Virus record (IMG/VR): IMGVR_UViG_3300034068_000286
Coordinates: 1 to 64,000 of that record
Length of the DNA: 64,000 nt
Strand: one strand, 5' to 3'
DNA from: a virus
The position numbers and the translations under genes are program-made. Shown piece after piece: positions 13,903-61,844 of the stretch (the first letter of the stretch is position 1; each line of letters opens with the position of its first letter). The notes beneath the pieces were generated by a model. It did no database searches. It was not told where the DNA came from and was given only the letters and a program-made list of their open reading frames with translations.

Positions 13903-14535
13903 TTAGGGTTTGCGTATTCGCTCGAAGCGTTCTATACAATCACCGCATGTTAAACGCAATAAAGCGGCATCTTCTGCGTTTTCTAGATATAAATGCAAAG
14001 GTTGTCCCCATCCGTATGCCCTGGGTAACGACTCGTTTTCAATGATATCTTTTAACAAACCTGCCGCATGCCACGCACCATCTAGTGATGCAACTGCCTG
14101 CTTAAAATTAGGGACATGTATTCTTCTAAAATCATCATTGTAACGAATTCTAGCTCTAATAGGATACTTGCCATACCATGGTCTATCCCTAATTACATCA
14201 TGCCCATGCTCAAGTAGTAAATCTTTTGCAGAATTGTTCTCTGGTTTCCAAACTTCTAAAATACGGCCGTCAACATTGTTGATTAGGTCATTTAGTTCTT
14301 CTTCATTTGAAAGAAATATACTTAGGTGTGTCTCTCTTCTAATTCCGGCATCGGGAAACCTAGATTTGCACCAACGCAATAATCTATTAAATTCATCATG
14401 TCGAAGTCTTCGATCTGCATCACTTACTCTACGCCAGCCATAGTGTCCATACAGTTCGGGTTTAATTTCAATGATGGCTTTATAAGGCCACTGTTTCCAA
14501 AATAAACGCTGTGTATTATGAATTTTCATTGGCAA
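13903..14535 (-). CDS. Hypothetical protein
   Basis: 210-aa ORF overlapping the end of clpA. Confidence 0.7.
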   Translation of the reverse strand: MPMKIHNTQRLFWKQWPYKAIIEIKPELYGHYGWRRVSDADRRLRHDEFNRLLRWCKSRFPDAGIRRETHLSIFLSNEEELNDLINNVDGRILEVWKPENNSAKDLLLEHGHDVIRDRPWYGKYPIRARIRYNDDFRRIHVPNFKQAVASLDGAWHAAGLLKDIIENESLPRAYGWGQPLHLYLENAEDAALLRLTCGDCIERFERIRKP

Positions 14536-16741
14536 TTAAAAGTTCTGTACCATTGCTGGTAACATGGTGTTTAGTAATGCCGTCTCGGATAATACGTTTA
14601 GCAATTGGTAATCTAATTTCTTCGTTGATCAAACGTTTCATTGGACGAGCACCCATTGTTTCACTGTAGCCGTGTTCTGCCAAGTAATCAAGTGCTTTAT
14701 CATCATAAGTTACGTACTGGCTTTGAGCATTAAGTTGTTCACGAATTTGATTCATAAACTTGTCGGCAATGCGTCGAGTAACATCTTTCTGTAAGCGATT
14801 AAATTTAACAGTGGCATCTAAACGATTGCGGAACTCTGGACTAAAGAACTTTTTAACTGCTTCATCGCTGGCATCATTGTTAAGTCCACCACCAAAGCCA
14901 ATCACGTTCTTTTCACTGTCAACTGCACCCAAGTTTGATGTCATAATAACAAAGGCATTACGAGCACTGGCTTGTTTGTTATCGCTACCTGTGACAATAC
15001 CATTGTCCATTATACCAAGCAGGACTTGGATAACATCTGGGTGTGCTTTTTCAATTTCGTCAAACAACAGTACACAGTTAGGCACACGCTCTAGTTCGTT
15101 AATCAACTTACCAGAACCAGCTTTGCCCTCGCCATAGCCAACATAGCCAGGTGGGCTACCAATCAGGCTAGCAATCTTGTGCGGCTCTTTGTATTCACTC
15201 ATATCAAAGCGAACCATTTCCATGCCCAAGCCCTCTGCAAGTTGGTTAGCAAGTTCTGTTTTACCAGTACCTGTTGGTCCAACAAACAAGAAGTTGGCCA
15301 TTGGACGATTTACTTCTTTGAGTCCTGACTTGGCAATATACACCATGTTCATTAGGCGTTCAATTGCTTCGTCTTGTCCAAACACGTTTGTACGCATACG
15401 GCTTTCAAGTTCAGTGACAGCAACGTTTTTCTGCTCACCTAGCTGTTCGATTGGCACACGAGTCAAGTCACTAATTTCTTGACGGATGTGATCCTTGGTA
15501 ACATCTGTACCTGCTGGTGAGTTTGTAACACGTAAACGTGCCATTGCCGCATCAAGGATGTCGATTGCTTTGTCAGGCAACTTCTTGTCCAACATATACT
15601 TCATTGACAAGTCAATTGCCAAGTCAATAGATTCTTCACCAACTGCTAAGTTATGGAACTTGGCATACACAGGCATTACTTGACGCAACATCAATTTGGT
15701 TTCTTCAACTGTGGGTTCATTGATGTCAATCTTGGTAAAGCGGCGTAGTAAGGCACGATCCTTCTCAAAGTGTTCACGGAACTCTTCGTAGGTTGTGCTA
15801 CCAATGCAACGTAGCTTGCCTTTTTCTAAACTTGGCTTCAACAAGTTGGCAACGTCCATGCTACCTTGACCGCCTGCACCTGCACCCATGATCATGTGAA
15901 TTTCATCAATGAACAAGATAGCATCATCACGTTCTTCTAGTGCTTCCAACACATGTTGCATACGTTCTTCAAAGTCACCGCGATAACGTGTACCAGCCAG
16001 CAACTTGCCCATGTCTAAACTATAAACAGTTTTCTTCTTTAGCACTTCAGGAACTTCGTTGCGAATAATAGCAACAGCTAGTCCTTCTACAATGGCAGTC
16101 TTACCCACACCAGGTTCACCAACCATGATAGCATTGTTTTTCTTTTTACGAGTAAGTGTTTGTGCAAGACGGAACACTTCCTTCTCACGCCCAATTAGTG
16201 GGTCAATCATTTGCTTTTCAGCACTCTTGTTCAAGTTTGTTGTGTACTTGCTTAGAATCTTTTCGCTGTCACGTTTCTTGGCAGTTTTGCTTTCTTTACT
16301 ACGGCCATCTTTTAAACGACCTATGTGAGCAATGATAGCATCCTTGGTAACACCATTTTTAACTAGGAAAAAGTTAGCATGGCTATTTTTTTCTGCGGCA
16401 ATACTGATCAGCAGATCTAGAGGCTCCATGTGTCCACGACCTGTAAAGATAGCCTGTGTGTAAGCACGATTAAAGCAACGCTCTAGGGTTGCAGTCTTGC
16501 GCGGCTTAGTGATACCTTCTACTCGAATATCTTCTTGCTCACGCAACCATTGATCAATTTCATCTTTGAGAAGTCCAACGTCAAGTTCTAGTTCAGTGAG
16601 AACATCTTTTACTTCTTCTTCGTCTAGCATCACACGTAGGATATGCTCCAGCGTGACATATTCATGTTCTCTGTTGAGTGCTTCTTGGAAAGCACGAGCA
16701 ATGACTTCGTTGATACGACCGTTGTTTTCTTCTTGACTCAT
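14516..16741 (-). CDS. clpA: ATP-dependent Clp protease ATP-binding subunit ClpA
   Basis: N-domain HEYVTLEH; Walker A motifs GEPGVGKT and GPTGTGKT; IGF loop; GARP sensor; start at MSQEENN. Confidence 0.93.
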   Translation of the reverse strand: MSQEENNGRINEVIARAFQEALNREHEYVTLEHILRVMLDEEEVKDVLTELELDVGLLKDEIDQWLREQEDIRVEGITKPRKTATLERCFNRAYTQAIFTGRGHMEPLDLLISIAAEKNSHANFFLVKNGVTKDAIIAHIGRLKDGRSKESKTAKKRDSEKILSKYTTNLNKSAEKQMIDPLIGREKEVFRLAQTLTRKKKNNAIMVGEPGVGKTAIVEGLAVAIIRNEVPEVLKKKTVYSLDMGKLLAGTRYRGDFEERMQHVLEALEERDDAILFIDEIHMIMGAGAGGQGSMDVANLLKPSLEKGKLRCIGSTTYEEFREHFEKDRALLRRFTKIDINEPTVEETKLMLRQVMPVYAKFHNLAVGEESIDLAIDLSMKYMLDKKLPDKAIDILDAAMARLRVTNSPAGTDVTKDHIRQEISDLTRVPIEQLGEQKNVAVTELESRMRTNVFGQDEAIERLMNMVYIAKSGLKEVNRPMANFLFVGPTGTGKTELANQLAEGLGMEMVRFDMSEYKEPHKIASLIGSPPGYVGYGEGKAGSGKLINELERVPNCVLLFDEIEKAHPDVIQVLLGIMDNGIVTGSDNKQASARNAFVIMTSNLGAVDSEKNVIGFGGGLNNDASDEAVKKFFSPEFRNRLDATVKFNRLQKDVTRRIADKFMNQIREQLNAQSQYVTYDDKALDYLAEHGYSETMGARPMKRLINEEIRLPIAKRIIRDGITKHHVTSNGTELLIANENS

Positions 16742-16772
16742 AATTACCTTTTCCGTTTGAATATTTATTGTA

Positions 16773-17567
16773 CTACTTTTCTGCTTGCAGGTCAACGATT
16801 GTTTTAAGCTGATCCTCTTCATCAAGGGCAGGTATTTTAACTCGAACATTGACATATCCGTTACCACGGGCACTTGATCCTCTTATGTTAAATCCTCTGT
16901 TTCGTAATCGAAGTTGTGTACCATGCTGAGTGCCAGCAGGGATAGTTATTTCAATTTCAGTTTCATCAATGTCAATGATCTTGGCAGTTGCTCCGCACAT
17001 GGCTTGCCACACACTGATTACAATATCTATATACAGGTCTTTACCGTTTAGAACCCAAGTTGAATCGTTGGAGATATCTAGTTTGACATATAGGTCACTA
17101 GGTGGCAAGTTGGATATCAATTGCCCACCTTCACCAGTGTATCTAATTTTAATATCTCTGTTGCATCCTGGTGGGAATGTAACTGATAATTTTTTAGATG
17201 TTTTGTCGGGCAAGGTGAATTCAACAGTCTTAGTAAATCCAGTGTGTGCTTCTTTTAGGGAGCAAGGAATACTGATGTTAACGTCAGGATTCTTAACGTC
17301 ATTGTCCCAACCTGTATTAAACGTCCAACTACGGGCACCTGCTTTGCGTCCCATGTTGAACATTTCATGCAGGTCATTAAATCCGCCGCCTTGTGTCTGG
17401 TTAGCCTTGCCGCTTGTAATGGCTTCGTATGCGGCTTGTATTTCTTGGAACTTGGCAGTATCACCGCCTTTGTCGGGGTGATGTATGCTTGCTAATTTAC
17501 GGTACGCCCGCTTGACATCATCTTCACTAGCACCACGTTCAATCCCAAGAGTCTTGTAATAATCCAT
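16773..17567 (-). CDS. DnaJ-class (CbpA-like) co-chaperone
   Basis: MDYYKTLG...HHPDKGG J-domain plus DnaJ C-terminal domain; no zinc finger. Confidence 0.9.
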   Translation of the reverse strand: MDYYKTLGIERGASEDDVKRAYRKLASIHHPDKGGDTAKFQEIQAAYEAITSGKANQTQGGGFNDLHEMFNMGRKAGARSWTFNTGWDNDVKNPDVNISIPCSLKEAHTGFTKTVEFTLPDKTSKKLSVTFPPGCNRDIKIRYTGEGGQLISNLPPSDLYVKLDISNDSTWVLNGKDLYIDIVISVWQAMCGATAKIIDIDETEIEITIPAGTQHGTQLRLRNRGFNIRGSSARGNGYVNVRVKIPALDEEDQLKTIVDLQAEK

Positions 17568-36587: not shown

Positions 36588-36649
36588 GTAGTAAATGTAC
36601 CTGGTGTGCGTGTATTGTACACGAATACATTTACTATGTCAAGTCTTTT

Positions 36650-37378
36650 TTAATCTATTTTAATGATCCAGGCATCCGTCAGTTGATTGTTAAGGTAGTT
36701 GAATGGAATCCAAAGATGTCCACGTTCTCCCCAACTACTACCAAAACTATTACGGGCCAGGATCAGCCTCCGTTTCAAGTCGTATCCTACAAATAGGACA
36801 GCGTGAGCACCAAATGGTTCTTCGTTTGGTTCAGGTAATTTGAGTATTGGATCACTTGGACTTATTTCTTCAAATGCTTTGAACACTCGAATGCTAGCTA
36901 TAACTGGATTTCCTGCATTTAGCGCATCTGTTATATCATTGACACCAGTTAGTCGATAATAGTTTTCAACGGTGGAGTTTAATGCATCTACATAACATTC
37001 ATCAGTGGGGCGAACATTAAACTTTGAAATGTCATACGGCCATAATTCTTCTGTACAAATACCATACTGCTTTGCGGCTTTTAGGGCATCGCGTGGGTAA
37101 GCACCAATATCTTCATTGATGGTTCCATCTTGTAATCGTGTGTTATAATACAAAAACAATGGACTCAAATCTACGTATGACTCTGGATAGTCTCTTTTTA
37201 CAATTAACTCATATGCCCCGACTATGGCTTGACTTGCACAGCTTCCTAAATTGTATTGCTGTTCAACATCGCTGGCCATTGGTCGGAGGTCAACACTTTC
37301 GCGTATTGGCTTACGAGTAAGGTTATAATATAGGTCTCGCCAATCTGTTTTATCTATGGCAAGATTATATTTTAACAT
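36650..37378 (-). CDS. Papain-like cysteine protease (C1A)
   Basis: Q..LGSC catalytic Cys, AHAV His, RNSFGSSWG Asn. Confidence 0.9.
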   Translation of the reverse strand: MLKYNLAIDKTDWRDLYYNLTRKPIRESVDLRPMASDVEQQYNLGSCASQAIVGAYELIVKRDYPESYVDLSPLFLYYNTRLQDGTINEDIGAYPRDALKAAKQYGICTEELWPYDISKFNVRPTDECYVDALNSTVENYYRLTGVNDITDALNAGNPVIASIRVFKAFEEISPSDPILKLPEPNEEPFGAHAVLFVGYDLKRRLILARNSFGSSWGERGHLWIPFNYLNNQLTDAWIIKID

Positions 37379-38061
37379 TATTGAATAAATTTATTTGGAT
37401 ACTGTTGAATTACACTATTTGCAAACGAATTTGCAAAGGTTGATATTCTTTCAGCTGCCTGTGTATGAGCTGATGCACTTGTTGTATCGTCTTGATTTAT
37501 AATAGCTGTTACTTCGCCGACCAAAGATTCTCGTATCGCAACCCACATGCGCTTGCCTGAACCAGGGAACCAATTGTTATTATACTGATTTAGTAACAGA
37601 TCAAATCCATCAAAATTTGAATCTAAGTTTGTAATTTGATTTTTAACATCAATTTTAAATTTTAGATTACGACAAATGCCAACCATGCCAAGCCCAACGC
37701 CTCTAAAAACTTGAGTTAATCTTTCGTTGAATTCAATACCATAGTATGGTCGAAGCATTAGGCCAAGATCATTGACTTCATCAAAATACGCTGTTTCCTC
37801 TGTTAGCAATGCGTCCATGTCGCCATTTTCTGTTGCGGTTGCGAAGCTTGTTAATCTTTGATGCATTGTTGTAAAGTACGCATTTACATCTGCTCTAAAT
37901 TTGTCAGCAGTTGTTGCGCCAACCATTGGACGCATGTCGTCATATCCGTTATATCCGTTATTTCCGTTATTTCCGTTGTCCAGCATACGTTTAATTTCAG
38001 TGTCTGCTGGGAGATCGAAGTGCTCTTCTTCGGTAATTGTATGAGTAATTTTCTTGTACAT
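37378..38061 (-). CDS. Hypothetical helical protein in the LuxR cassette
   Basis: LRPYYG motif; NG(N/Y) micro-repeats; TAATG coupling to the protease. Confidence 0.7.
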   Translation of the reverse strand: MYKKITHTITEEEHFDLPADTEIKRMLDNGNNGNNGYNGYDDMRPMVGATTADKFRADVNAYFTTMHQRLTSFATATENGDMDALLTEETAYFDEVNDLGLMLRPYYGIEFNERLTQVFRGVGLGMVGICRNLKFKIDVKNQITNLDSNFDGFDLLLNQYNNNWFPGSGKRMWVAIRESLVGEVTAIINQDDTTSASAHTQAAERISTFANSFANSVIQQYPNKFIQ

Positions 38062-38072
38062 AATGTATTTCC

Positions 38073-38624
38073 TTATACTATAAACCAATGACCACCACGG
38101 CTAAGCAGGTGTACTGATTGCCAAGGTTCTGTCATTGTATAACTTAAAGCACCATCTATGGTGCTGTCATTATTTGTTTCTATCGTCACATGCTGGCCGG
38201 CTGCTAATTTAGACATTTCTATCTTTAGTGCTATTTGGTAACCATCGCCAGGATAAAGGGGAAGTGTAATAGTAATCGGTCTATCACAATTAATACCAAT
38301 ATAGCAATCATCGTTCGTGCATCCATAATCTTCCGATACTAAAATTGTACCGAAAGTTGATTCCTGCGTATCACTGGAATCTCCTTGCGGTCCTGCAGGG
38401 CCTGCTGGCCCTACTACATGTCCAGCATTTAATTCAGTACCGTCGTTGTAAACTAAAATTAAATCACCATCTCGTGTTAGTCCTGCACTGACAATAATTT
38501 TTGCAGATGCGCTTATAACACCATCTGGTGTAATATTAATACCAGCACCAATCTTTACAACACCTAAAGATGTTTTGGTGGCAATGTCATCCTGCGACAA
38601 AACTGTTTTGGTATTGTATGACAT
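38073..38624 (-). CDS. Mini-fibre protein with short collagen tract and beta C-domain
   Basis: SLGVVKIGAG, GPAGPAGPQG and ITLP...TIDG...W.I. Confidence 0.7.
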   Translation of the reverse strand: MSYNTKTVLSQDDIATKTSLGVVKIGAGINITPDGVISASAKIIVSAGLTRDGDLILVYNDGTELNAGHVVGPAGPAGPQGDSSDTQESTFGTILVSEDYGCTNDDCYIGINCDRPITITLPLYPGDGYQIALKIEMSKLAAGQHVTIETNNDSTIDGALSYTMTEPWQSVHLLSRGGHWFIV

Positions 38625-38653
38625 AGTTTTATATCGTGTTACTGTATGCTATA

Positions 38654-39058
38654 TTAGATTAAGATCCACTGTGCGCCATCAAAGATAAACGTCAATGAAC
38701 CAAATGGTACATCAATAGTAGCAGTTGCGGCGCCATCTACTGTGTCAGGGACTGTTGGTGTAATAGTAATAGGTGTTGCTGGTGCAGCCAATCCTAGTCC
38801 GTCTTTGATTGTGAATACTTTACCAGCAACACCTGCTGGCAATGTAACTGCTACAGCAACTGGTCCAGGAACTTGTACGCTGATTACTTCATCTGTGGTT
38901 GCACTGGCTACGACTGGAGTTGCAACTGCAATTCTAACTGCCACTGGATTAATACCATTAGTGCTAAGAGTAATTGTATTTGCACCTGTACCTGTTGTTG
39001 GTGTAACTGTGATACCTGCTCCGGCAAGTATCGATGTTGGATTATTTGTATATGACAT
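38654..39058 (-). CDS. Beta-rich fibre-domain paralog
   Basis: VTLP...IKDG.G...PITI...TVDG...GSLTFIFDGAQWI. Confidence 0.7.
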   Translation of the reverse strand: MSYTNNPTSILAGAGITVTPTTGTGANTITLSTNGINPVAVRIAVATPVVASATTDEVISVQVPGPVAVAVTLPAGVAGKVFTIKDGLGLAAPATPITITPTVPDTVDGAATATIDVPFGSLTFIFDGAQWILI

Positions 39059-39099
39059 TTTTAGTTTTCCTTTATATTAACTAATTTCGACTGGAATGG

Positions 39100-39459
39100 T
39101 TATCCTATAATCTTCCAGTTTGTACCGTCATACACTACCTGTATATGACCATATCCACCATTGATGATTGCAAATGGATTGCTGTCAATGGTCTTGGATC
39201 CTGCTGATGTAATAGTAACTGGGTTCGCCACTGAGTTACCTGAAATATCTTTGATGTAATATGAACGCTTTAGCACTGGCTTTTTTTTGCCGTTGTAGTC
39301 GTCGTCTTCATCGCCGCAACAATCTTCACCTGTGGCCAGGCCATTGGCTGGCAATATAACAGACGATGGTCCAACAACATTCATAAAAATTACTTCATCT
39401 GATGATAACACGGTGTAAGGTGTTGTTGTAACTATTTTTGTGTTTAAATTTGAAGACAT
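39100..39459 (-). CDS. Beta-rich fibre-domain paralog
   Basis: VILP...IKDISG...PVTI...TID...VVYDGTNWKI. Confidence 0.7.
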   Translation of the reverse strand: MSSNLNTKIVTTTPYTVLSSDEVIFMNVVGPSSVILPANGLATGEDCCGDEDDDYNGKKKPVLKRSYYIKDISGNSVANPVTITSAGSKTIDSNPFAIINGGYGHIQVVYDGTNWKIIG

Positions 39460-39468
39460 ATTATTTCC

Positions 39469-40020
39469 TTAACTGATTCTTGTTAGTGTAACTTTTACAC
39501 TGGCGCCGCTTGGACGCACTGGACCAACTCTTGCTGGCAATGCCAATAACTGCATGGTAGTGTCAGCACTACTCCAGCATAGTTCTACATTGCCCCCAGC
39601 AGGTATATCCAATGTATAATTGCCTGTAACGAAGATTGTATCCAATGCTCCTGTTAAAATTAAATCTTGTGCTGAGCCTGCAATGTCTGCTCCATTTAGA
39701 CGTAGCCATATGCTAATAGTGCTAGCGCCACCGGATGTTTTGTTTACATTCATTGTAAACACCGTGTTGTATGTTCCAGCGTTGACTACTGTAAGTTGAG
39801 TACCCCCGACTATACTAATTCCATTTGCGGGACCAGTTTCACTAAATGTTGCCAAGTTAACTGCACTGGCCACTGGGTTAGTTTGTGTTCCGTTTTCAAA
39901 AAATCCATAGTTAAGTAAGCCTGTTGATGCGTTAACGGTTCCATCAGTAACTGATAAACCAGTGCCGACTTTCATAATTCCAAAATCGGTGGTTGAAGTA
40001 AGTGGTGCTTTGTAGCCCAT
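39469..40020 (-). CDS. BclA-C/C1q-like beta-sandwich protein
   Basis: GISIVGGTQLTVVNAGTY...IWLRLNG.DI.GS...TLTRI. Confidence 0.6.
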   Translation of the reverse strand: MGYKAPLTSTTDFGIMKVGTGLSVTDGTVNASTGLLNYGFFENGTQTNPVASAVNLATFSETGPANGISIVGGTQLTVVNAGTYNTVFTMNVNKTSGGASTISIWLRLNGADIAGSAQDLILTGALDTIFVTGNYTLDIPAGGNVELCWSSADTTMQLLALPARVGPVRPSGASVKVTLTRIS

Positions 40021-40490
40021 TATACGATACTCCACGCACTTCCATTGAATACAAAAGTTAAGCTTCCGAAATTAGTATTAATTGTGGCCGTATTTCCATC
40101 GACTAATTCCCCGCCAGTGCCTTGAATAGTAATTGGATTAGTGACTGCATCACCATCGCAATCTTTGACTATGTAAACTGTGCCTAATATACCAGTAGGC
40201 AATGTAATTGTCACTGGCGCGGCTACATCAACGCAAAGGAAATAATCCTGTGCGGTGGCTGTGTATGTTGCTGTTGTTACTTGTGTGACTGTGACTGGAC
40301 TTGGGTTTCCTCCAGTAATAATATTTCCGCTCCCGATATTAATAATGTCATTATCATTGCCTGTATTACTTCCAGGAATGTACAATGGTATTGGTACAAA
40401 CGGAGGGAATGGTGGGTAAAAACCTGCTGGTGCAATACCTTGGGTTTGATTTTGATACGGATATTGATCCTGAAATTGATCTTGTGACAT
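40020..40490 (-). CDS. Beta-rich fibre-domain paralog with Pro-rich N-terminus
   Basis: ITLP.G..G.VYIVKD.DG...NPITI...VDG...GSLTFVFNG..WSI. Confidence 0.7.
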   Translation of the reverse strand: MSQDQFQDQYPYQNQTQGIAPAGFYPPFPPFVPIPLYIPGSNTGNDNDIINIGSGNIITGGNPSPVTVTQVTTATYTATAQDYFLCVDVAAPVTITLPTGILGTVYIVKDCDGDAVTNPITIQGTGGELVDGNTATINTNFGSLTFVFNGSAWSIV

Positions 40491-40500
40491 AGGTTCTCCA

Positions 40501-40535
40501 AAAAAAAGCACTCGCCCTTGTGAGGCAAGTGCTTT
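40501..40535 (-). terminator. Intrinsic terminator after the cassette lead gene
   Basis: AAAGCACTTGCC-TCACAAG-GGCGAGTGCTTT followed by further T residues. Confidence 0.75.
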
Positions 40536-40543
40536 AATAACAA

Positions 40544-41302
40544 TTATCGAATGTTAGTATTGTTGTTCAATGGATTGGCCGTTTGTGTGCCAGTTCCAAC
40601 ATTGATAGCTTGGTTAGTAGCCTGAATGCCTTGCGCTAGTGAGTAAATAGCGTGGTACAACTGGCCATACTGTTGCTGTTGCTGAGTTTGTTGTTGCATC
40701 TGATTGATGTTATTAGTTGTAGTAACTTCAACACCACGAGTACGCTCGGCATTATCAAAGCGATTCTGCAAAGCAATAACTGCGGCATTAGCATCAGATA
40801 GTTGACGATTCAACATTGCTTCGTATTGTGATGTAATCAATGCACGAGTTTTGTCACCGTCATCATAAACTGCACGTTGTGTTTCATTAGCTGTTGTCAT
40901 CAAGTTAGTATTGATGGTGTTCAACTGTTGTGCAAGTACCATTGCATTTGCATTAACTGCTTCTCTTGTGCCGTCAATACGAGCTGCCAAACTGCCTGTG
41001 ACATTGTTCAATTGTGATGTGATAGCCGCTGATTGGTTAGCTTGACTGCCTTCCATTGCCGCTGTGCCAACTGCCACTGCTTTGTCAACTGCTCCAACGC
41101 TGGCCATCAAGTCCATGTTAGCTTGAACTTGCTCAGGTGGACTGCGTAAAACTGCTCCGCCTGCACCATCGTTGCCTAATAGATTGCCGTTGTTACGTAG
41201 TAATGATCCTAAAATCAAACCACCAATCAGGCCACCGCCTACGCCCATGCCACCGCCGCCAAGGATGTCGCCACCGCCTGTTACTGTAGATAAATCTGCC
41301 AT
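40544..41302 (-). CDS. Gly-rich N-terminal hydrophobic segment plus long coiled-coil protein with Q/N-rich tail
   Basis: GGGLIGGLILGSLL, heptad-like Ala/Asn/Gln helix, DGDKTRALI, QQQTQQQQQ; AGGAG SD. Confidence 0.75.
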   Translation of the reverse strand: MADLSTVTGGGDILGGGGMGVGGGLIGGLILGSLLRNNGNLLGNDGAGGAVLRSPPEQVQANMDLMASVGAVDKAVAVGTAAMEGSQANQSAAITSQLNNVTGSLAARIDGTREAVNANAMVLAQQLNTINTNLMTTANETQRAVYDDGDKTRALITSQYEAMLNRQLSDANAAVIALQNRFDNAERTRGVEVTTTNNINQMQQQTQQQQQYGQLYHAIYSLAQGIQATNQAINVGTGTQTANPLNNNTNIR

Positions 41303-41398
41303 TTTTTAATTTCTCCTATTTAAATATGAGACTTAGAAGTTCTCATATCTACTTAGGGGGAAATCTTAATAGTAATGGTAGCTTTTAGTATTACGGTA

Positions 41399-41413
41399 TA
41401 CTCCAGTACTAGA
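41399..41413. promoter_or_regulatory. Candidate LuxR operator TACTCCAGTACTAGA
   Basis: TACTCCAGTAC and AGTACTAGA recur at 42182-42204. Confidence 0.45.
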
Positions 41414-41418
41414 AAAAG

Positions 41419-42123
41419 TTATGCTCGCAATCCAAATTCTGAACCAGACAATGCCAATTGTGTTCTGTTGCGTACCTTGTATGCTTTTAGGATTGCGCTG
41501 ATATGGACCTTGACTGTACTTTCACTTATGTTTAATATTTGTGCTATCTTTTTATTACTCAATCCGCGTTTACACACTAGGTCAAAAATTTCGGTTTGTC
41601 TATTTGTCAATGCAATTTCATCTTTGGCATTTTTTGTTTTTATTACAGCGCCTGGTAACTGATCTAAAATATGTTTAGGCCAATATGATATTTGATTAAC
41701 CAGCATTGTCAGGCCCTGAGTCATTTCACTTATTCCAAATGATTCAGCCGATGGCACTATTCCTACCAATGACGTTCGTTTTAAATCCCTTATCACCGCA
41801 TATGGTGTTTCCTTATCTATACTAACGCCAATGGGAATCGTTCTTCCTGGTGTGGTAAATTTGATAAGTGTTTCAAGCATTGACACAAATTCAAAAATAG
41901 TAGTACCCTCTTGCACAAGCATACCAATATGAAATATAATTTGAGATGGCTCTGAACTTAACACATCACTGAGATCCTTCCAGTGACCACAAAACTTGGT
42001 TTTAAATACAGCATCTTCTCTTGTTAGTAGTGCCAGAGTTGTTGCTGGTATTTGTGTTTCCCAGTCTTTACGAAAATAAACACTTACTGGTTTATGATTT
42101 AAATTTGGTATTACGTTTGACAT
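41419..42123 (-). CDS. LuxR/NarL-family transcription regulator with atypical receiver-like N-domain
   Basis: LTNRQTEI...GLSNKKIAQILNISESTVKVHISAIL...NRTQL HTH. Confidence 0.9.
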   Translation of the reverse strand: MSNVIPNLNHKPVSVYFRKDWETQIPATTLALLTREDAVFKTKFCGHWKDLSDVLSSEPSQIIFHIGMLVQEGTTIFEFVSMLETLIKFTTPGRTIPIGVSIDKETPYAVIRDLKRTSLVGIVPSAESFGISEMTQGLTMLVNQISYWPKHILDQLPGAVIKTKNAKDEIALTNRQTEIFDLVCKRGLSNKKIAQILNISESTVKVHISAILKAYKVRNRTQLALSGSEFGLRA

Positions 42124-42218
42124 TGTTATGCTTTCTTGTACCAATACTTAAAAGCATATAAGCATAATAGTGGTAAGCAATAGTACTAGATAGTACTCCA
42201 GTACGATATGATCAGCCA

Positions 42219-42242
42219 TAAAAAACGCACCCTAGGTGCGTT
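42219..42242 (-). terminator. Intrinsic terminator
   Basis: AACGCACC-TAG-GGTGCGTT-TTTT. Confidence 0.7.
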
Positions 42243-42705: not shown

Positions 42706-43032
42706 TTATAGTGTATTTAGAGTGGGCTTCAATAATGCAGTCAGTTCACGCTCACGAGCATGAGCCGCTGTCTTGCCACGCACCACTTCCAACAAGTAAG
42801 GAGTGAAACCTTCACGTCCATATGTACGAAGTGCTTCGCACAGGTTCCAGTTCTTGCTTTCTGTATTGGCACGGCTCAAATGACGGTTAAAACGTCCACG
42901 CACAGAGCTCAATGCAGAGCCATCAACTACAGTGATACCAATGTAGCTGTCACCTGTAACTTCGCAAAACAATTCGTAAATTGCGTGGTTACGGTCTGTA
43001 CGTCTTTTGCGGGATACTGTTTTGCTGTTCAT
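42706..43032 (-). CDS. GIY-YIG nuclease-domain protein
   Basis: AIYE...DSYIGIT...R...H...ERE...PTLN. Confidence 0.75.
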   Translation of the reverse strand: MNSKTVSRKRRTDRNHAIYELFCEVTGDSYIGITVVDGSALSSVRGRFNRHLSRANTESKNWNLCEALRTYGREGFTPYLLEVVRGKTAAHARERELTALLKPTLNTL

Positions 43033-43038
43033 GTGTTT

Positions 43039-43126
43039 ATTATAACGCACTTTGAGCCAGACGTCAACCGTTTTCTGGGCTTTTGAGCCAGATTTCTGAG
43101 CCTATTTTTGTTGTATTTTAGCAACA
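43039..43126 (-). promoter_or_regulatory. Early sigma70 promoter plus upstream 18-bp palindrome
   Basis: TTGACG-17-TATAAT; TGTTGTATTTTAGCAACA at 43109-43126. Confidence 0.75.
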
Positions 43127-43153: not shown

Positions 43154-43223
43154 AATTATTATCAATTATTATCAATTATTATCAATTATTATCAATTATT
43201 ATCAATTATTATCAATTATTATC
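43154..43223. repeat. Tandem repeat (AATTATTATC) x7
   Basis: Seven perfect 10-bp units; the last overlaps the amidinotransferase stop codon. Confidence 0.95.
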
Positions 43224-44280
43224 GATTATCGGGGAAATAATCTTCCATTGTACCTTCTCTGTGTAAATCAGTAGTGATACAATGTAATCCACCATCCCAG
43301 AAATAACGATGTCTAAAATTGCAAATATGTGGAGTAATATTATATCTACCGAATGCATCAAATACTGTTTTATTATATCCATTAACGATTACATTATGTT
43401 TGTCAATAACCAGCATATTAACATCAAACACACTTTCTTCAACATAACCTACCCAATGACTCATCCACTTCTCAACGTAGCTGGTAAAGTCATCATTTAG
43501 TTCTTGTCCAGGAACCCACCACTTGCCTTCATTTTTGTATTTCATTTGAAGGAACGGATCTACTTTATTCATCTCACCAGTTAGTGCAACTACCTCCCAG
43601 CCAGGAAATGTTTTCCCATATTGTAAAGGTTCTTGATTAGATATTATCAATCCTGGTACCACAGGACAAAATGTACCATCAGTGTGTCCCTGAGTATCTA
43701 TATTGTGAACACGATAATCGGGCAATTTGTCTTGTAATTCGTTTGATACTCTTGCCAGATCTTCAGCGGTGTTGTTGAATTCGAATCTACCCGGCGTCCC
43801 AACTATTAAGTCTCGACCAATACGACTAATCATTGCGGCATTTAAAAAATGCCATGTATCCAACTTAGGTTCACTTGAACCATAATCTGGCCCTCGTTCT
43901 GTAGTATTGCCCTGAGCTTGTACTAAATCTACTATGGGTTCATTGGTTGCAGGTACGCCTCGCCAGTAAAACTTATCGCCTAACATGGCACAGTAATCTC
44001 TAGGTTGCATTTCACTTGGTCGCGGAATAAATGTATTGGTTTCAATACCTCGTTGTGATTCTGCAATCCGTTCGGTCATGTCAGGTCTAACTGTTTGCAC
44101 ACCAAAACTATGTAATAGATTAATTAGTTTTTGATAGTCTTCTTCAGTTTCTTCTGCTATTTGATAAAATACCTTGCGAACCTTTTCGTTCTTGATATAA
44201 TCATAAAGTTCTGGGGGATACGATTTTCCCACTGCACAGACTTTGAGTCTGTCCCAATGTTGATAAACTGAATATGTCAT
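43219..44280 (-). CDS. Amidinotransferase (glycine/inosamine-phosphate amidinotransferase family)
   Basis: WDRLKVCAVG, QPRD, GHTDG, FDVNML and GGLHC pentein catalytic motifs. Confidence 0.85.
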   Translation of the reverse strand: MTYSVYQHWDRLKVCAVGKSYPPELYDYIKNEKVRKVFYQIAEETEEDYQKLINLLHSFGVQTVRPDMTERIAESQRGIETNTFIPRPSEMQPRDYCAMLGDKFYWRGVPATNEPIVDLVQAQGNTTERGPDYGSSEPKLDTWHFLNAAMISRIGRDLIVGTPGRFEFNNTAEDLARVSNELQDKLPDYRVHNIDTQGHTDGTFCPVVPGLIISNQEPLQYGKTFPGWEVVALTGEMNKVDPFLQMKYKNEGKWWVPGQELNDDFTSYVEKWMSHWVGYVEESVFDVNMLVIDKHNVIVNGYNKTVFDAFGRYNITPHICNFRHRYFWDGGLHCITTDLHREGTMEDYFPDNR

Positions 44281-60342: not shown

Positions 60343-60615
60343 TCAATACATCCGGCGTTTGATACCATCACGCGGTACACGCTTGCCGTTTAGTTCGTCT
60401 GTTTCTACTTGTTTTAAATGACGACGTCTTGCTTTATTAGCGGCAACTCTGCGCTCTGTGGTTGGCTTAACGTATTCTCCACGCTCGCGAACTTCGTCCA
60501 TTTTACCACTATCTTGTATCTTGTTTTTAAATTTTCTAAGTGCTTTTTCAACTTGGTCATCTTTGACTAATACACTTGTGCCACGTATTTTAGGGCGTTG
60601 ATTATCTCTACTCAT
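60343..60615 (-). CDS. rpsU: Ribosomal protein bS21
   Basis: V.V....VEKALRKFK......G...EVRER..YVKPT..R. Confidence 0.88.
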   Translation of the reverse strand: MSRDNQRPKIRGTSVLVKDDQVEKALRKFKNKIQDSGKMDEVRERGEYVKPTTERRVAANKARRRHLKQVETDELNGKRVPRDGIKRRMY

Positions 60616-61844
60616 TATGCTACTATTTCTAAGTTTTTATAAATTTTGACTGTGCTATGGTCTTCCACAGACTGTTCAGTGATTATAACTTTACTTAATC
60701 CTTCTTGTACCAACTCGGGCAAATTGAACTGTACATCCAGTAACACTTGCTCAATTATGCTTCTTAATCCACGGGCGCCTGTTTTTTTGGCAATGCTTAA
60801 ATTGGCAATAGCTACACGTGCTTCTGGCATAAATTCAAGTTCAACCCGATCTAGTTCAAAGATTGCTTTATATTCTTTTTCAATGCTGTCTTCTGGATCA
60901 GTCATAATATGTACCAAGTCATTGGCAGTCAATGTATCTAATGCGGCAACAACTGGAATACGTCCCATAAACTCAGGAATCATACCAAACTTGACAAAGT
61001 CTTCTGGTTCCACTTCAGCTAGCCATACATCTGTTTTAACATCAGCGCAATCTACTTCTGCTCCAAACCCAATTTTGGCTCCACCACTTATACGTTTTTT
61101 AACCTGTTCGTCTAGGCCTACAAATGCACCACCTAGAATAAACAAAATGTTTTTTGTGTTTACTACGTTTGTTTCACTACCAGGGTGCTTGCGACCACCA
61201 TTTTGTGGAACACGACATTCTGTCCCTTCAATTAGTTTAAGCAAGGCCTGTTGCACACCTTCTCCACTTACATCTCGAGTAATACTAGAGCTTTCGCTTT
61301 TACGACCTTTTTTATCAATTTCGTCAATGTAAATAATACCAGTCTCAGCTTTTTTAATGTCGCCTCCAGCGGCTTGGACTAGACGGTGTATAACACTTTC
61401 AACATCGTCACCTACGTAACCTGATTCTGTCAGTGTTGTGGCATCGGCAATAGCAAAAGGCACATTGATCTTTTCAGCTAGTTTTTTTGCTAAAAGCGTT
61501 TTACCTGAACCAGTGGGGCCGATTAACAATACATTTGATTTTTTAATAAGGTCCGTGCTGCCTTGACTCAGTCGTTTGTAGTGATTACGCACAGCTACAC
61601 TCAAACTTCGTTTGGCAAGGTCTTGTCCAATGACAAATTTATCTAGGTATGCTTTAATTTCACTTGGCGTTGTTGAATTAATAAATTCACCAGGTTTATC
61701 TTTTACATCAGACGCAATGGCATCTACACAAAGATTAATACACTCATCACAAATGTATGCGTTTTCGCCAGCAATTAATGCTTTGACTTCGTCTCTGCCT
61801 TTACTGCAAAAACTACATGTTAATTTTTGAACTTTATCTACCAA
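60615..61844 (-). CDS. clpX: ATP-dependent Clp protease ATP-binding subunit ClpX
   Basis: CSFC...CDEC zinc domain; GPTGSGKT; [14 protein letters not shown]; RKHP; IGF; GARGLR. Confidence 0.96.

Follow-up and report, generated by a model that had tools for sequence, protein, structure and literature searches.

What is made by a phage gene cassette in which a LuxR-type regulator, a long coiled-coil protein, a series of small fibre-domain proteins and a papain-like peptidase are encoded one after another, and do these genes belong together? The cassette in question comprises nine genes (positions 36,650 to 42,204) in a 64,000-nucleotide stretch of viral DNA, referred to here as the window, which is the first 64 kb of the 86.5-kb IMG/VR viral contig IMGVR_UViG_3300034068_000286. 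A preliminary description of the cassette had proposed that all nine genes give rise to one conditionally expressed filament, coat or particle, the major subunit of which is matured by the cassette's own C1A protease and the production of which is switched by the LuxR protein. We find that the conserved core of the cassette is a two-part module, consisting of the gene for the coiled-coil protein (the lead gene) and the genes for beta-domain proteins that follow it, and that the nine-gene block is a lineage-specific elaboration of that core. In particular, among 80 related IMG/VR viral contigs (81 loci when the window is counted; loci are designated L and a number), one to five beta-domain genes lie directly after the lead gene in 77, whereas genes for a LuxR regulator and a C1A peptidase accompany it at only three of the 81 loci (the window, L025 and L077) and the gene for a 236-aa protein at only two (the window and L077). 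A dedicated maturation protease and a signal-responsive switch are thus not supported as general properties of the system and are lineage-specific at best. The best reading of the core, which we hold tentatively, is that of an abundant membrane-active shaft with several alternative virion adaptors.

All nine open reading frames were found on the minus strand at the positions given in the preliminary description; the starts of the b1 and C1q-like genes are probably to be corrected to the ATG codons at 40490 and 40020, respectively. In the direction of transcription, the features of the cassette and its boundaries are as follows.

42224..42242, minus strand: intrinsic-terminator-like hairpin (8-bp stem with 5 GC pairs, then TTTTAT), which closes the upstream unit and bounds the cassette.
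42194..42204, minus strand: GTACTGGAGTA word with half-sites GTACT/AGTAC, a candidate operator upstream of the LuxR gene.
41419..42144, minus strand: LuxR/NarL/CsgD-type regulator with a C-terminal GerE helix-turn-helix; its start may be the ATG at 42123.
41399..41409, minus strand: second exact copy of GTACTGGAGTA, within the lead gene's 116-nt leader.
40544..41302, minus strand: lead protein, 252 aa, with a GxxxGxxxG helix, a helix at residues 57-225, a poly-Q stretch and a conserved disordered tail.
40505..40535, minus strand: internal intrinsic terminator directly 3' of the lead gene (13-bp stem, T-run).
40020..40490, minus strand: b1, a Pro/Gln-rich N-terminus followed by an XD1-like beta domain (matches to phrog_20556, baseplate, and phrog_972, long tail fibre proximal subunit).
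39469..40020, minus strand: probable C1q/TNF-like head protein, 188 aa, with a fibre-type N-terminal motif (sub-significant matches).
39100..39459, minus strand: b2, an XD1-like beta paralog with an acidic Cys-rich insert (family profile).
38654..39058, minus strand: b3, an XD1-like beta paralog (AlphaFold model, predicted local distance difference test score, pLDDT, 87.8).
38073..38624, minus strand: b4, a fibre-shaft repeat and GPAGPAGPQG collagen triplets, then an XD1-like domain (BLASTP).
37378..38088, minus strand: 236-aa protein with an Asn/Gly-rich tract, the gene for which overlaps both neighbouring genes.
36650..37378, minus strand: papain-family (C1A, xylellain-like) cysteine peptidase (Pfam match, alignment to 3OIS, catalytic motifs).
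36614..36642, minus strand: sigma-70-like promoter TTGACA-17-TACAAT, which starts the next downstream unit and marks the distal boundary of the cassette.

Both the upstream terminator and the internal terminator that had been predicted are therefore present, and terminator-like sites are in excess in the region (11 versus 5.4 expected). Sigma-70-like promoters were also found at several of the units that neighbour the cassette. The claim that the cassette is self-contained holds in part: it is an insulated operon with an internal terminator, but its nine genes are not one conserved unit.

Loci with a lead gene fall into at least four unrelated genomic contexts, one with SbcCD, a 5'-3' exonuclease, a class II ribonucleotide reductase, PhoH and Dps, a second with UvdE, many small genes, tRNAs and a transfer-messenger RNA (tmRNA), a third with IscU and IscA, and a fourth of the LuxR...C1A type, and the flanks of the window cassette have nothing in common with those of most other lead loci. 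The fact that the adjacency of lead and beta genes is kept while the flanks differ argues that the pair travels as a unit. The C1q-like gene occurs with the lead gene in 20 of the 80 related loci. Two further small genes were seen at the module elsewhere. One (clusters 4 and 54; for example L018:7556-7813 and L027:1809-2012) encodes a small helical, acidic protein of 65-85 aa and is found in approximately 40 loci, either immediately 5' of the lead gene or behind the final beta gene; its product matches no known family and could be a chaperone or another component of the module. The other, between beta genes in 8 loci (for example L007:9097-9375), encodes a 92-aa protein with a C-terminal transmembrane helix. 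Genes for Fe-S assembly, Dps/ferritin-like and PhoH proteins flank the module at L005:6965-7351, L007:7413-7715, L081:8666-9121 and L072:2506-3222; the IscU-like and IscA/HesB-like genes were recognised by sequence alone, and the Dps/ferritin-like and PhoH genes by Pfam/PHROG matches.

What kind of protein does the lead gene encode? As had been described, its N-terminus is hydrophobic and rich in Gly, and is followed by a single long helix and a tail rich in Q and N. In an AlphaFold2 model made with a 99-sequence alignment, the hydrophobic segment GGGLIGGLILGSLL forms a short helix (approximately residues 20-36) with glycines in the register G24-x3-G28-x3-G32. G28 is invariant and G24 and G32 are near-invariant in a 13-member alignment (A4), and the GxxxGxxxG segment is nearly invariant over the 99 diverse members. 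In the model a flexible Gly-rich linker joins this zipper helix to an unbroken helix of 169 residues (57-225), with pLDDT >90 over most of its length, and the tail is disordered yet conserved. The hydrophobic periodicity of the long helix peaks at 3.67 residues rather than at 3.5, which indicates a hendecad (11/3) pattern, and the hydrophobic residues form one stripe of approximately 100 degrees, as in straight bundles of three to four strands. Six residue types (Ala, Gly, Asn, Gln, Thr and Ser) make up 60% of the protein, Asn, Gln and Arg together make up 25%, and there are 2 Lys, 7 Glu and no Cys or Trp. Such a composition is typical of extracytoplasmic or virion fibrous proteins and not of cytoplasmic coiled coils. 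Note that many members of the family carry an in-frame N-terminal extension, either an amphipathic helix of approximately 50 aa or a beta-sandwich of approximately 95 aa, and that an internal Met with a Shine-Dalgarno sequence of its own comes after each extension, so that two isoforms per lead gene are possible. The beta-sandwich, which begins MW (examples are residues 1-95 of P0142, P0229 and P0123, and L075:2751-3818), lacks a signal peptide, is confined to the lead family and has only weak PDB matches, to designed Ig domains and cupredoxins.

The family is large. A search of a 5.8-billion-protein set (E<=1e-3) returned 2145 lead homologues, of which the best 120 are 69-96% identical to the lead protein and carry neither a name nor a Pfam domain, and the family resolves into 251 representative clusters at 50% identity, with lengths of 250-575 aa. 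Only noise (CCDC154, SctB, LEDGF and linker artefacts) was returned from Pfam, PHROG, NCBIfam and the PDB, consistent with the view of the preliminary description that there is no described equivalent, and only unnamed viral clusters were returned from the ESM Atlas. No lead relative was found when the 13-member alignment was scanned against one genome from each of 185,579 bacterial and archaeal species, and megablast of the cassette against 50,697 phage records gave no match. The family is strongly conserved in T4-like, jumbo and dwarf myoviruses and in other phages of freshwater Proteobacteria, close homologues sit on contigs of 349-356 kb, and the family as a whole seems restricted to lytic phages with Gram-negative hosts, most of them aquatic. 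Three cultured phages, Acinetobacter At2, Iodobacter PhiPLPE and Pararheinheimera KLER1-1, carry a homologue. In related T4-like contigs, long tRNA arrays and a permuted (two-piece) tmRNA of betaproteobacterial type lie a few kb from the module (L002:11492-11847, L012:10421-10813 and L010:14997-15376), which points to freshwater Betaproteobacteria as hosts.

The signals around the lead gene point to strong expression. The gene has a strong Shine-Dalgarno sequence, and in 46 of 67 distinct loci it is followed by a GC-rich hairpin and T-run whose stems vary and whose loop is mostly CACAAG-like. The recurrence of this terminator behind the lead gene supports the proposal, made in the preliminary description, that the product of gene 1 is in excess over those of the downstream genes; by eye, hairpin strength bears no simple relation to the number of beta genes across the related loci. 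The 5' leaders of the lead gene contain conserved, lineage-specific hairpins with compensatory base changes, followed by an A-rich tract and the Shine-Dalgarno sequence. In lineage A7 (L010:7742-7859 and 14 others) 9 of the 12 pairs of a 12-bp stem covary, and in lineage A8 (L002:7730-7847 and 9 others) 8 of 11 pairs covary in two stems. These hairpins belong to no Rfam family and may be mRNA-stabilising or regulatory elements. Contigs with the lead and beta genes of relatives were present in two lake metatranscriptome libraries, one contig being 4106 nt long, although such contigs give no transcription level, ends or gene ranking and may reflect DNA carry-over.

The small proteins encoded after the lead gene resemble fibre and baseplate modules. 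The four beta proteins of the window have in common a C-terminal domain of approximately 90 aa, with 23-40% pairwise identity, and a profile of their family matches exactly these four proteins in the 86.5-kb record (E 1e-24 to 1e-38). A profile built from 81 members matches the N-terminal region of T4 gp34, the long tail fibre proximal subunit (9x3r, E 3.2e-7), and, more weakly, CBA120 TSP4-N. When the model of b3 was compared with known structures by Foldseek, the matches, all with probability 1.0, were to the baseplate of Klebsiella phage KP1, TSP4-N, T4 gp9, T4 gp10 and the Pa223 capsid spike (E values include 7e-5 for 9f4b, 2.5e-4 for 7rfv, 5.4e-4 for 1qex and 9.8e-3 for 5iv5), and those in BFVD were to tailspikes, collagen-repeat fibres, Gp9/Gp10 proteins and many small stand-alone viral proteins. 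On the strength of these profile and model matches we assign the beta domain to the XD1 fold of T4 gp9, gp10 and gp34-N and of CBA120 TSP4-N. In TSP4-N the XD1 domain is part of trimeric anchor/spacer modules that organise branched fibres (PMC8825819), and the beta proteins of the window look like "anchor + XD1" pieces without a distal body. Consistent with the earlier suggestion that b4 reuses modules of the collagen fibre of the virion, residues 15-86 of b4 align to five repeats of the 1247-aa fibre (BLASTP, E 2e-6 to 2e-5). The earlier fibre-domain assignment of the small proteins is thereby supported at the levels of profile, fold and repeat. The 188-aa protein is probably a TNF/C1q-like head, judging from matches below significance: it has an Atlas feature score of 0.94 to a C1q cluster and weak PDB matches to TNFSF9 (E 0.33-0.9) and the exosporium protein 7r1m (E 0.66), and no Pfam C1q match. 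The statement that the small proteins lack signal peptides also stands, none being detected by hydropathy and a lipobox heuristic in 80 of 81 beta proteins or in any of 19 C1q-like proteins; the lipobox heuristic by itself found none in all 81 and all 19.

How might such a pair of components work? We tentatively suggest that gene 1 makes, in excess, a straight hendecad coiled-coil shaft approximately 25 nm long, one end of which would bear the conserved glycine-zipper hydrophobic segment, membrane-active or self-associating, and the other end the conserved Asn/Thr-rich tail. Read-through of the terminator behind the lead gene would yield smaller amounts of trimeric "anchor + XD1" adaptors and of the C1q/TNF-like head. 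The adaptors, which resemble in their construction the N-terminal part by which tailspikes and tail fibres are anchored to the baseplate, would couple the common shaft to sockets on the virion, whether in the baseplate, a fibre or the capsid, and the product would be an accessory modular side fibre, the hydrophobic tip of which engages the host envelope. That one shaft serves four to five adaptors would explain both the attenuating terminator and the excess of shaft. In the jumbo-phage lineage of the window, a LuxR regulator of the NarL/CsgD type would have taken control of the module, and a papain-like peptidase would have become linked to it. In favour of a virion fibre system are the XD1 partners, the repeats that b4 has in common with the 1247-aa fibre, and the composition of the lead protein.

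Several observations weigh against the shaft-and-adaptor reading. The lead family spans unrelated morphotypes and occupies variable, moron-like positions: the homologue in KLER1-1 (gp74) is the first gene of a replication-gene operon, that in At2 lies between tail genes and the genes for a lysozyme and an Rz spanin, and in L103, L089 and L095 the lead gene is just upstream of the TerS/TerL-portal-protease-capsid genes. Such positions fit a host-directed autonomous protein better than a docked part of the virion. Approximately 30 loci encode distant lead homologues (290-410 aa) with no beta gene alongside (a scan with a single At2-type member found one locus only), and we conclude from these that the lead protein works on its own. 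The glycine zipper is conserved beyond the needs of a simple anchor. Lastly, the lead homologue of PhiPLPE, gp38, has the annotation "putative tail-fiber protein" and is surrounded by tail and virion genes, but confirmation by mass spectrometry is recorded for its neighbours gp34 and gp35 and not for gp38 itself. An invariant zipper, a lead gene that stands alone and changes position, and conservation in phages whose virions are unrelated all point to a universal target, such as the host envelope.

Alternatively, the lead protein may not belong to the virion at all. It would then be an autonomous protein of the inner membrane of infected cells, strongly expressed and crossing that membrane once, with a 25-nm helix that spans the periplasm of Gram-negative hosts and a role in superinfection exclusion, envelope bracing or the timing of lysis. 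Its glycine-zipper transmembrane segment would oligomerise, any role in lysis would be holin-, antiholin- or spanin-like, and the mini-fibre genes would merely be co-transcribed late genes. We regard an infected-cell membrane protein as almost as likely as a shaft with adaptors, that is, as possible but still on the doubtful side. In its favour, the near-invariant GxxxGxxxG segment has a transmembrane score in about half of the distant members; the moron-like gene comes with its own terminator and leader, and in long and short in-frame isoforms; the known or inferred hosts are all Gram-negative; and conservation across unrelated phages suggests a target at the level of the host. The neighbourhood of the gene is also suggestive, given that it adjoins the lysozyme and Rz genes in At2, is two genes from an endolysin-like gene in L103, and in L095, L089 and L103 occupies, directly upstream of TerS/TerL, the classic position of a lysis cassette. 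However, the linkage in 77 of 80 loci to XD1 proteins without export signals is kept while the flanks are shuffled. Moreover, members of 250-400 aa with 60-95% identity do not resemble holins or exclusion proteins, spanins are encoded separately in At2 and PhiPLPE (those of PhiPLPE, with its lysis genes, being approximately 17 kb from gp38), no family member was found in prophages or bacterial genomes in the scan of one genome per species, and the few charges that flank the hydrophobic segment leave the topology unclear.

A third possibility is that the lead protein is packaged in the virion and ejected as a pilot or channel protein, in which the zipper helices insert into a membrane and the N/Q/R-rich hendecad helices form a conduit across the envelope, as with phiX174 H. 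The architecture is indeed analogous to that of the H-tube, in which hendecad and heptad helices form a tube with a lining of Asn, Gln and Arg (PMC7354561); the lead protein has a periodicity of 3.67 residues, and a quarter of it is Asn, Gln and Arg. Some gene positions would also suit a pilot protein, since the lead gene lies between two unannotated genes of approximately 485 aa, of portal size, and the scaffold gene in L091, and after a giant tail protein in At2 and L109. Nevertheless, a PDB profile search with the 99 members returned neither H nor an ejection protein at E<=1, and a position-wise analysis of Asn, Gln and Arg along the long helix, which has a single hydrophobic stripe, revealed no distinct lumen-facing face. 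In addition, the carriers are mostly contractile-tailed phages, the expression signals suggest high abundance, and the link to XD1 adaptors would go unexplained. We therefore consider a pilot protein improbable.

Three specific identities for the lead protein were considered and set aside. An i-spanin would call for an adjacent lipoprotein, which was not seen among the beta and C1q-like proteins, and At2 and PhiPLPE have spanins of their own; a holin does not agree with a length of 250-400 aa, and an endolysin gene is absent beside the lead gene in the window and at most loci, adjacency being restricted to At2 and L103; and homology to phiX174 H was not detected in the PDB profile search. At a more general level, the lead family may be an unrecognised pan-phage class of membrane-active coiled-coil proteins, a conserved, fusion-peptide-like glycine zipper on a straight 25-nm hendecad stalk, that bridge or breach the cell envelope in entry, exclusion or exit, a proposition that we consider speculative and rather unlikely as it stands. 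Such stalk proteins of lytic phages of Gram-negative aquatic bacteria would be either virion-borne by means of interchangeable XD1 adaptors or planted in the host envelope.

Do the regulator and the peptidase add anything to the shaft and its adaptors? The regulator has a GerE helix-turn-helix (PF00196) at residues 179-231 (55.1 bits versus a cutoff of 23.5; Pfam E 5.7e-15), in agreement with the earlier LuxR assignment. Its best full-length neighbours in NCBIfam are of the NarL/ErdR/CsgD type, with the qualification that the alignments to ErdR and CsgD start only at residue 109 or 139 and score far below the equivalog cutoffs, and Pfam finds no REC or autoinducer-binding domain. The palindromic 11-mer GTACTGGAGTA has exactly two copies in the 64 kb, one ahead of the LuxR gene and one ahead of the lead gene, where 0.74 matches would be expected by chance with one mismatch allowed, and L077 has GTAC-rich words or repeats at the positions that match both sites. 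The paired words fit control by the LuxR protein in the lineage of the window, and DNA containing GTACTGGAGTAC is a candidate target of the LuxR protein there. The word TATTTAAATA, which precedes the lead gene, does not recur in the window, and no promoter of the T4 late type was seen.

The peptidase (242 aa) matches PF00112 (48.2 bits versus a cutoff of 20.7), and its alignment to 3OIS, a C1A enzyme of bacterial origin, covers the full length (E 1.3e-33) and shows the QxxxGSC, GxHAV and NSxG..G motifs to be conserved; the earlier C1A call is thus secure. By sequence inspection, its catalytic Cys is residue 47 and it has neither a hydrophobic N-terminus nor an I29-type propeptide. The 236-aa protein has no match in Pfam, PHROGs, NCBIfam or a further profile search, and its only homologue found is that of L077.

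The proposal that all nine genes make a single LuxR-switched, protease-matured assembly can hold only for the three-locus lineage of the window, L077 and L025, and even so strikes us as unlikely. Within that lineage the order LuxR...lead...beta...C1A is kept in three diverged loci, with LuxR proteins that are 33-43% identical and C1A peptidases that are 38-43% identical, which argues for a real local association, homologues of either gene being found with the lead gene at no other locus. Overlapping stops and starts couple the b4, 236-aa and C1A genes, and GTAC words are common to the regions upstream of the LuxR and lead genes. On the other hand, neither LuxR nor C1A accompanies the lead gene at 78 of the 81 loci, and the lead proteins encoded there have the same termini; homologues of the C1A peptidase are present in FLC9 and a 595-kb uncultured phage, neither of which has a lead match in the phage collection; and no cleavage site or prodomain is evident.

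As for the source of the DNA, a CheckV completeness of 26% for an 86.5-kb contig implies a fragment of a jumbo phage. With few exceptions the genes of the window are on the minus strand, and DNA nearly identical to the window was present in 22 lake or freshwater DNA runs from 2020-2025. The window also encodes collagen-like tail-fibre genes, a UvdE-like endonuclease and a Lon-like ATP-dependent protease (14516-16873; phrog_4871, E 5e-243). A second AAA+ protein (60615-61844) has its best match in phrog_4339, of unknown function (E 9e-101), and weak matches to protease families. At 43158-43225 (minus strand), upstream of the gene for a 114-aa protein (42706-43050), promoter-like matches of the form TTGATA-16-GATAAT recur at 10-bp steps, a spacing that points to a tandem repeat of approximately 10 bp.

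Of the wholly uncharacterised families of phage proteins seen in this analysis, the lead family is among the larger, and the signals that govern its expression point to an abundant protein with a target shared by all its hosts. If it is truly a virion shaft with exchangeable adaptors, then it represents a new way to build modular fibres; if it is truly an envelope-spanning protein, it is a new player in exclusion, entry or lysis. The homologues in the cultured phages At2, PhiPLPE and KLER1-1 make the question directly testable.

How does the module compare with known systems? The beta domain of the window, like CBA120 TSP4-N and T4 gp9, gp10 and gp34-N, is the same beta-sandwich after a short fibre-like segment, and known TSP4-N, gp9 and gp10 are trimeric docking modules in baseplates and fibres (PMC8825819). 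Unlike adaptors of the TSP4-N type, however, the window beta domain ends the protein, with no XD2 or XD3 and no catalytic or receptor-binding body, and the genes are small (119-183 aa), duplicated in tandem, and located outside the tail cluster behind an unrelated coiled-coil gene. The peptidase compares with xylellain-like 3OIS over its full length and in its Cys/His/Asn motifs, but is phage-borne and without a signal peptide or prodomain. The beta proteins add new small members to a known fold, and the peptidase and the regulator are ordinary members of their families. Coiled-coil fibres and needles of phages include T4 fibritin, P22 gp26 with the Sf6-type TNF-like knob, and the phi29 head fibre. 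Fibres of the fibritin/gp26 type have in common with the lead protein a long helical shaft of the trimeric type, approximately 25 nm in length, and a possible TNF/C1q-like knob; they differ in that the lead protein has no sequence or profile similarity to them, has hendecads and not heptads, and has a conserved glycine zipper, and in that the knob and adaptors of the window are separate gene products and the genomic position varies. With Rz i-spanins and T4-type class III holins the lead protein shares a single N-terminal hydrophobic segment followed by a helical domain of extracytoplasmic type, and, in At2 and L103, proximity to lysis genes; it is two to three times longer, has no partner lipoprotein, and is far more conserved than lysis proteins usually are. 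The phiX174 H protein, for its part, has a Gly-rich N-terminus. Its resemblance to the lead protein lies in a long Asn/Gln/Arg-rich hendecad helix of envelope-spanning length (PMC7354561), whereas the two have no detectable homology, the carriers of the lead gene are tailed dsDNA phages, and the lead pattern fits a solid bundle. No description of the lead family, or of its pairing with XD1 mini-proteins, was found in the libraries and literature searched, and the chance that the lead protein stands for a new functional class is a real one.

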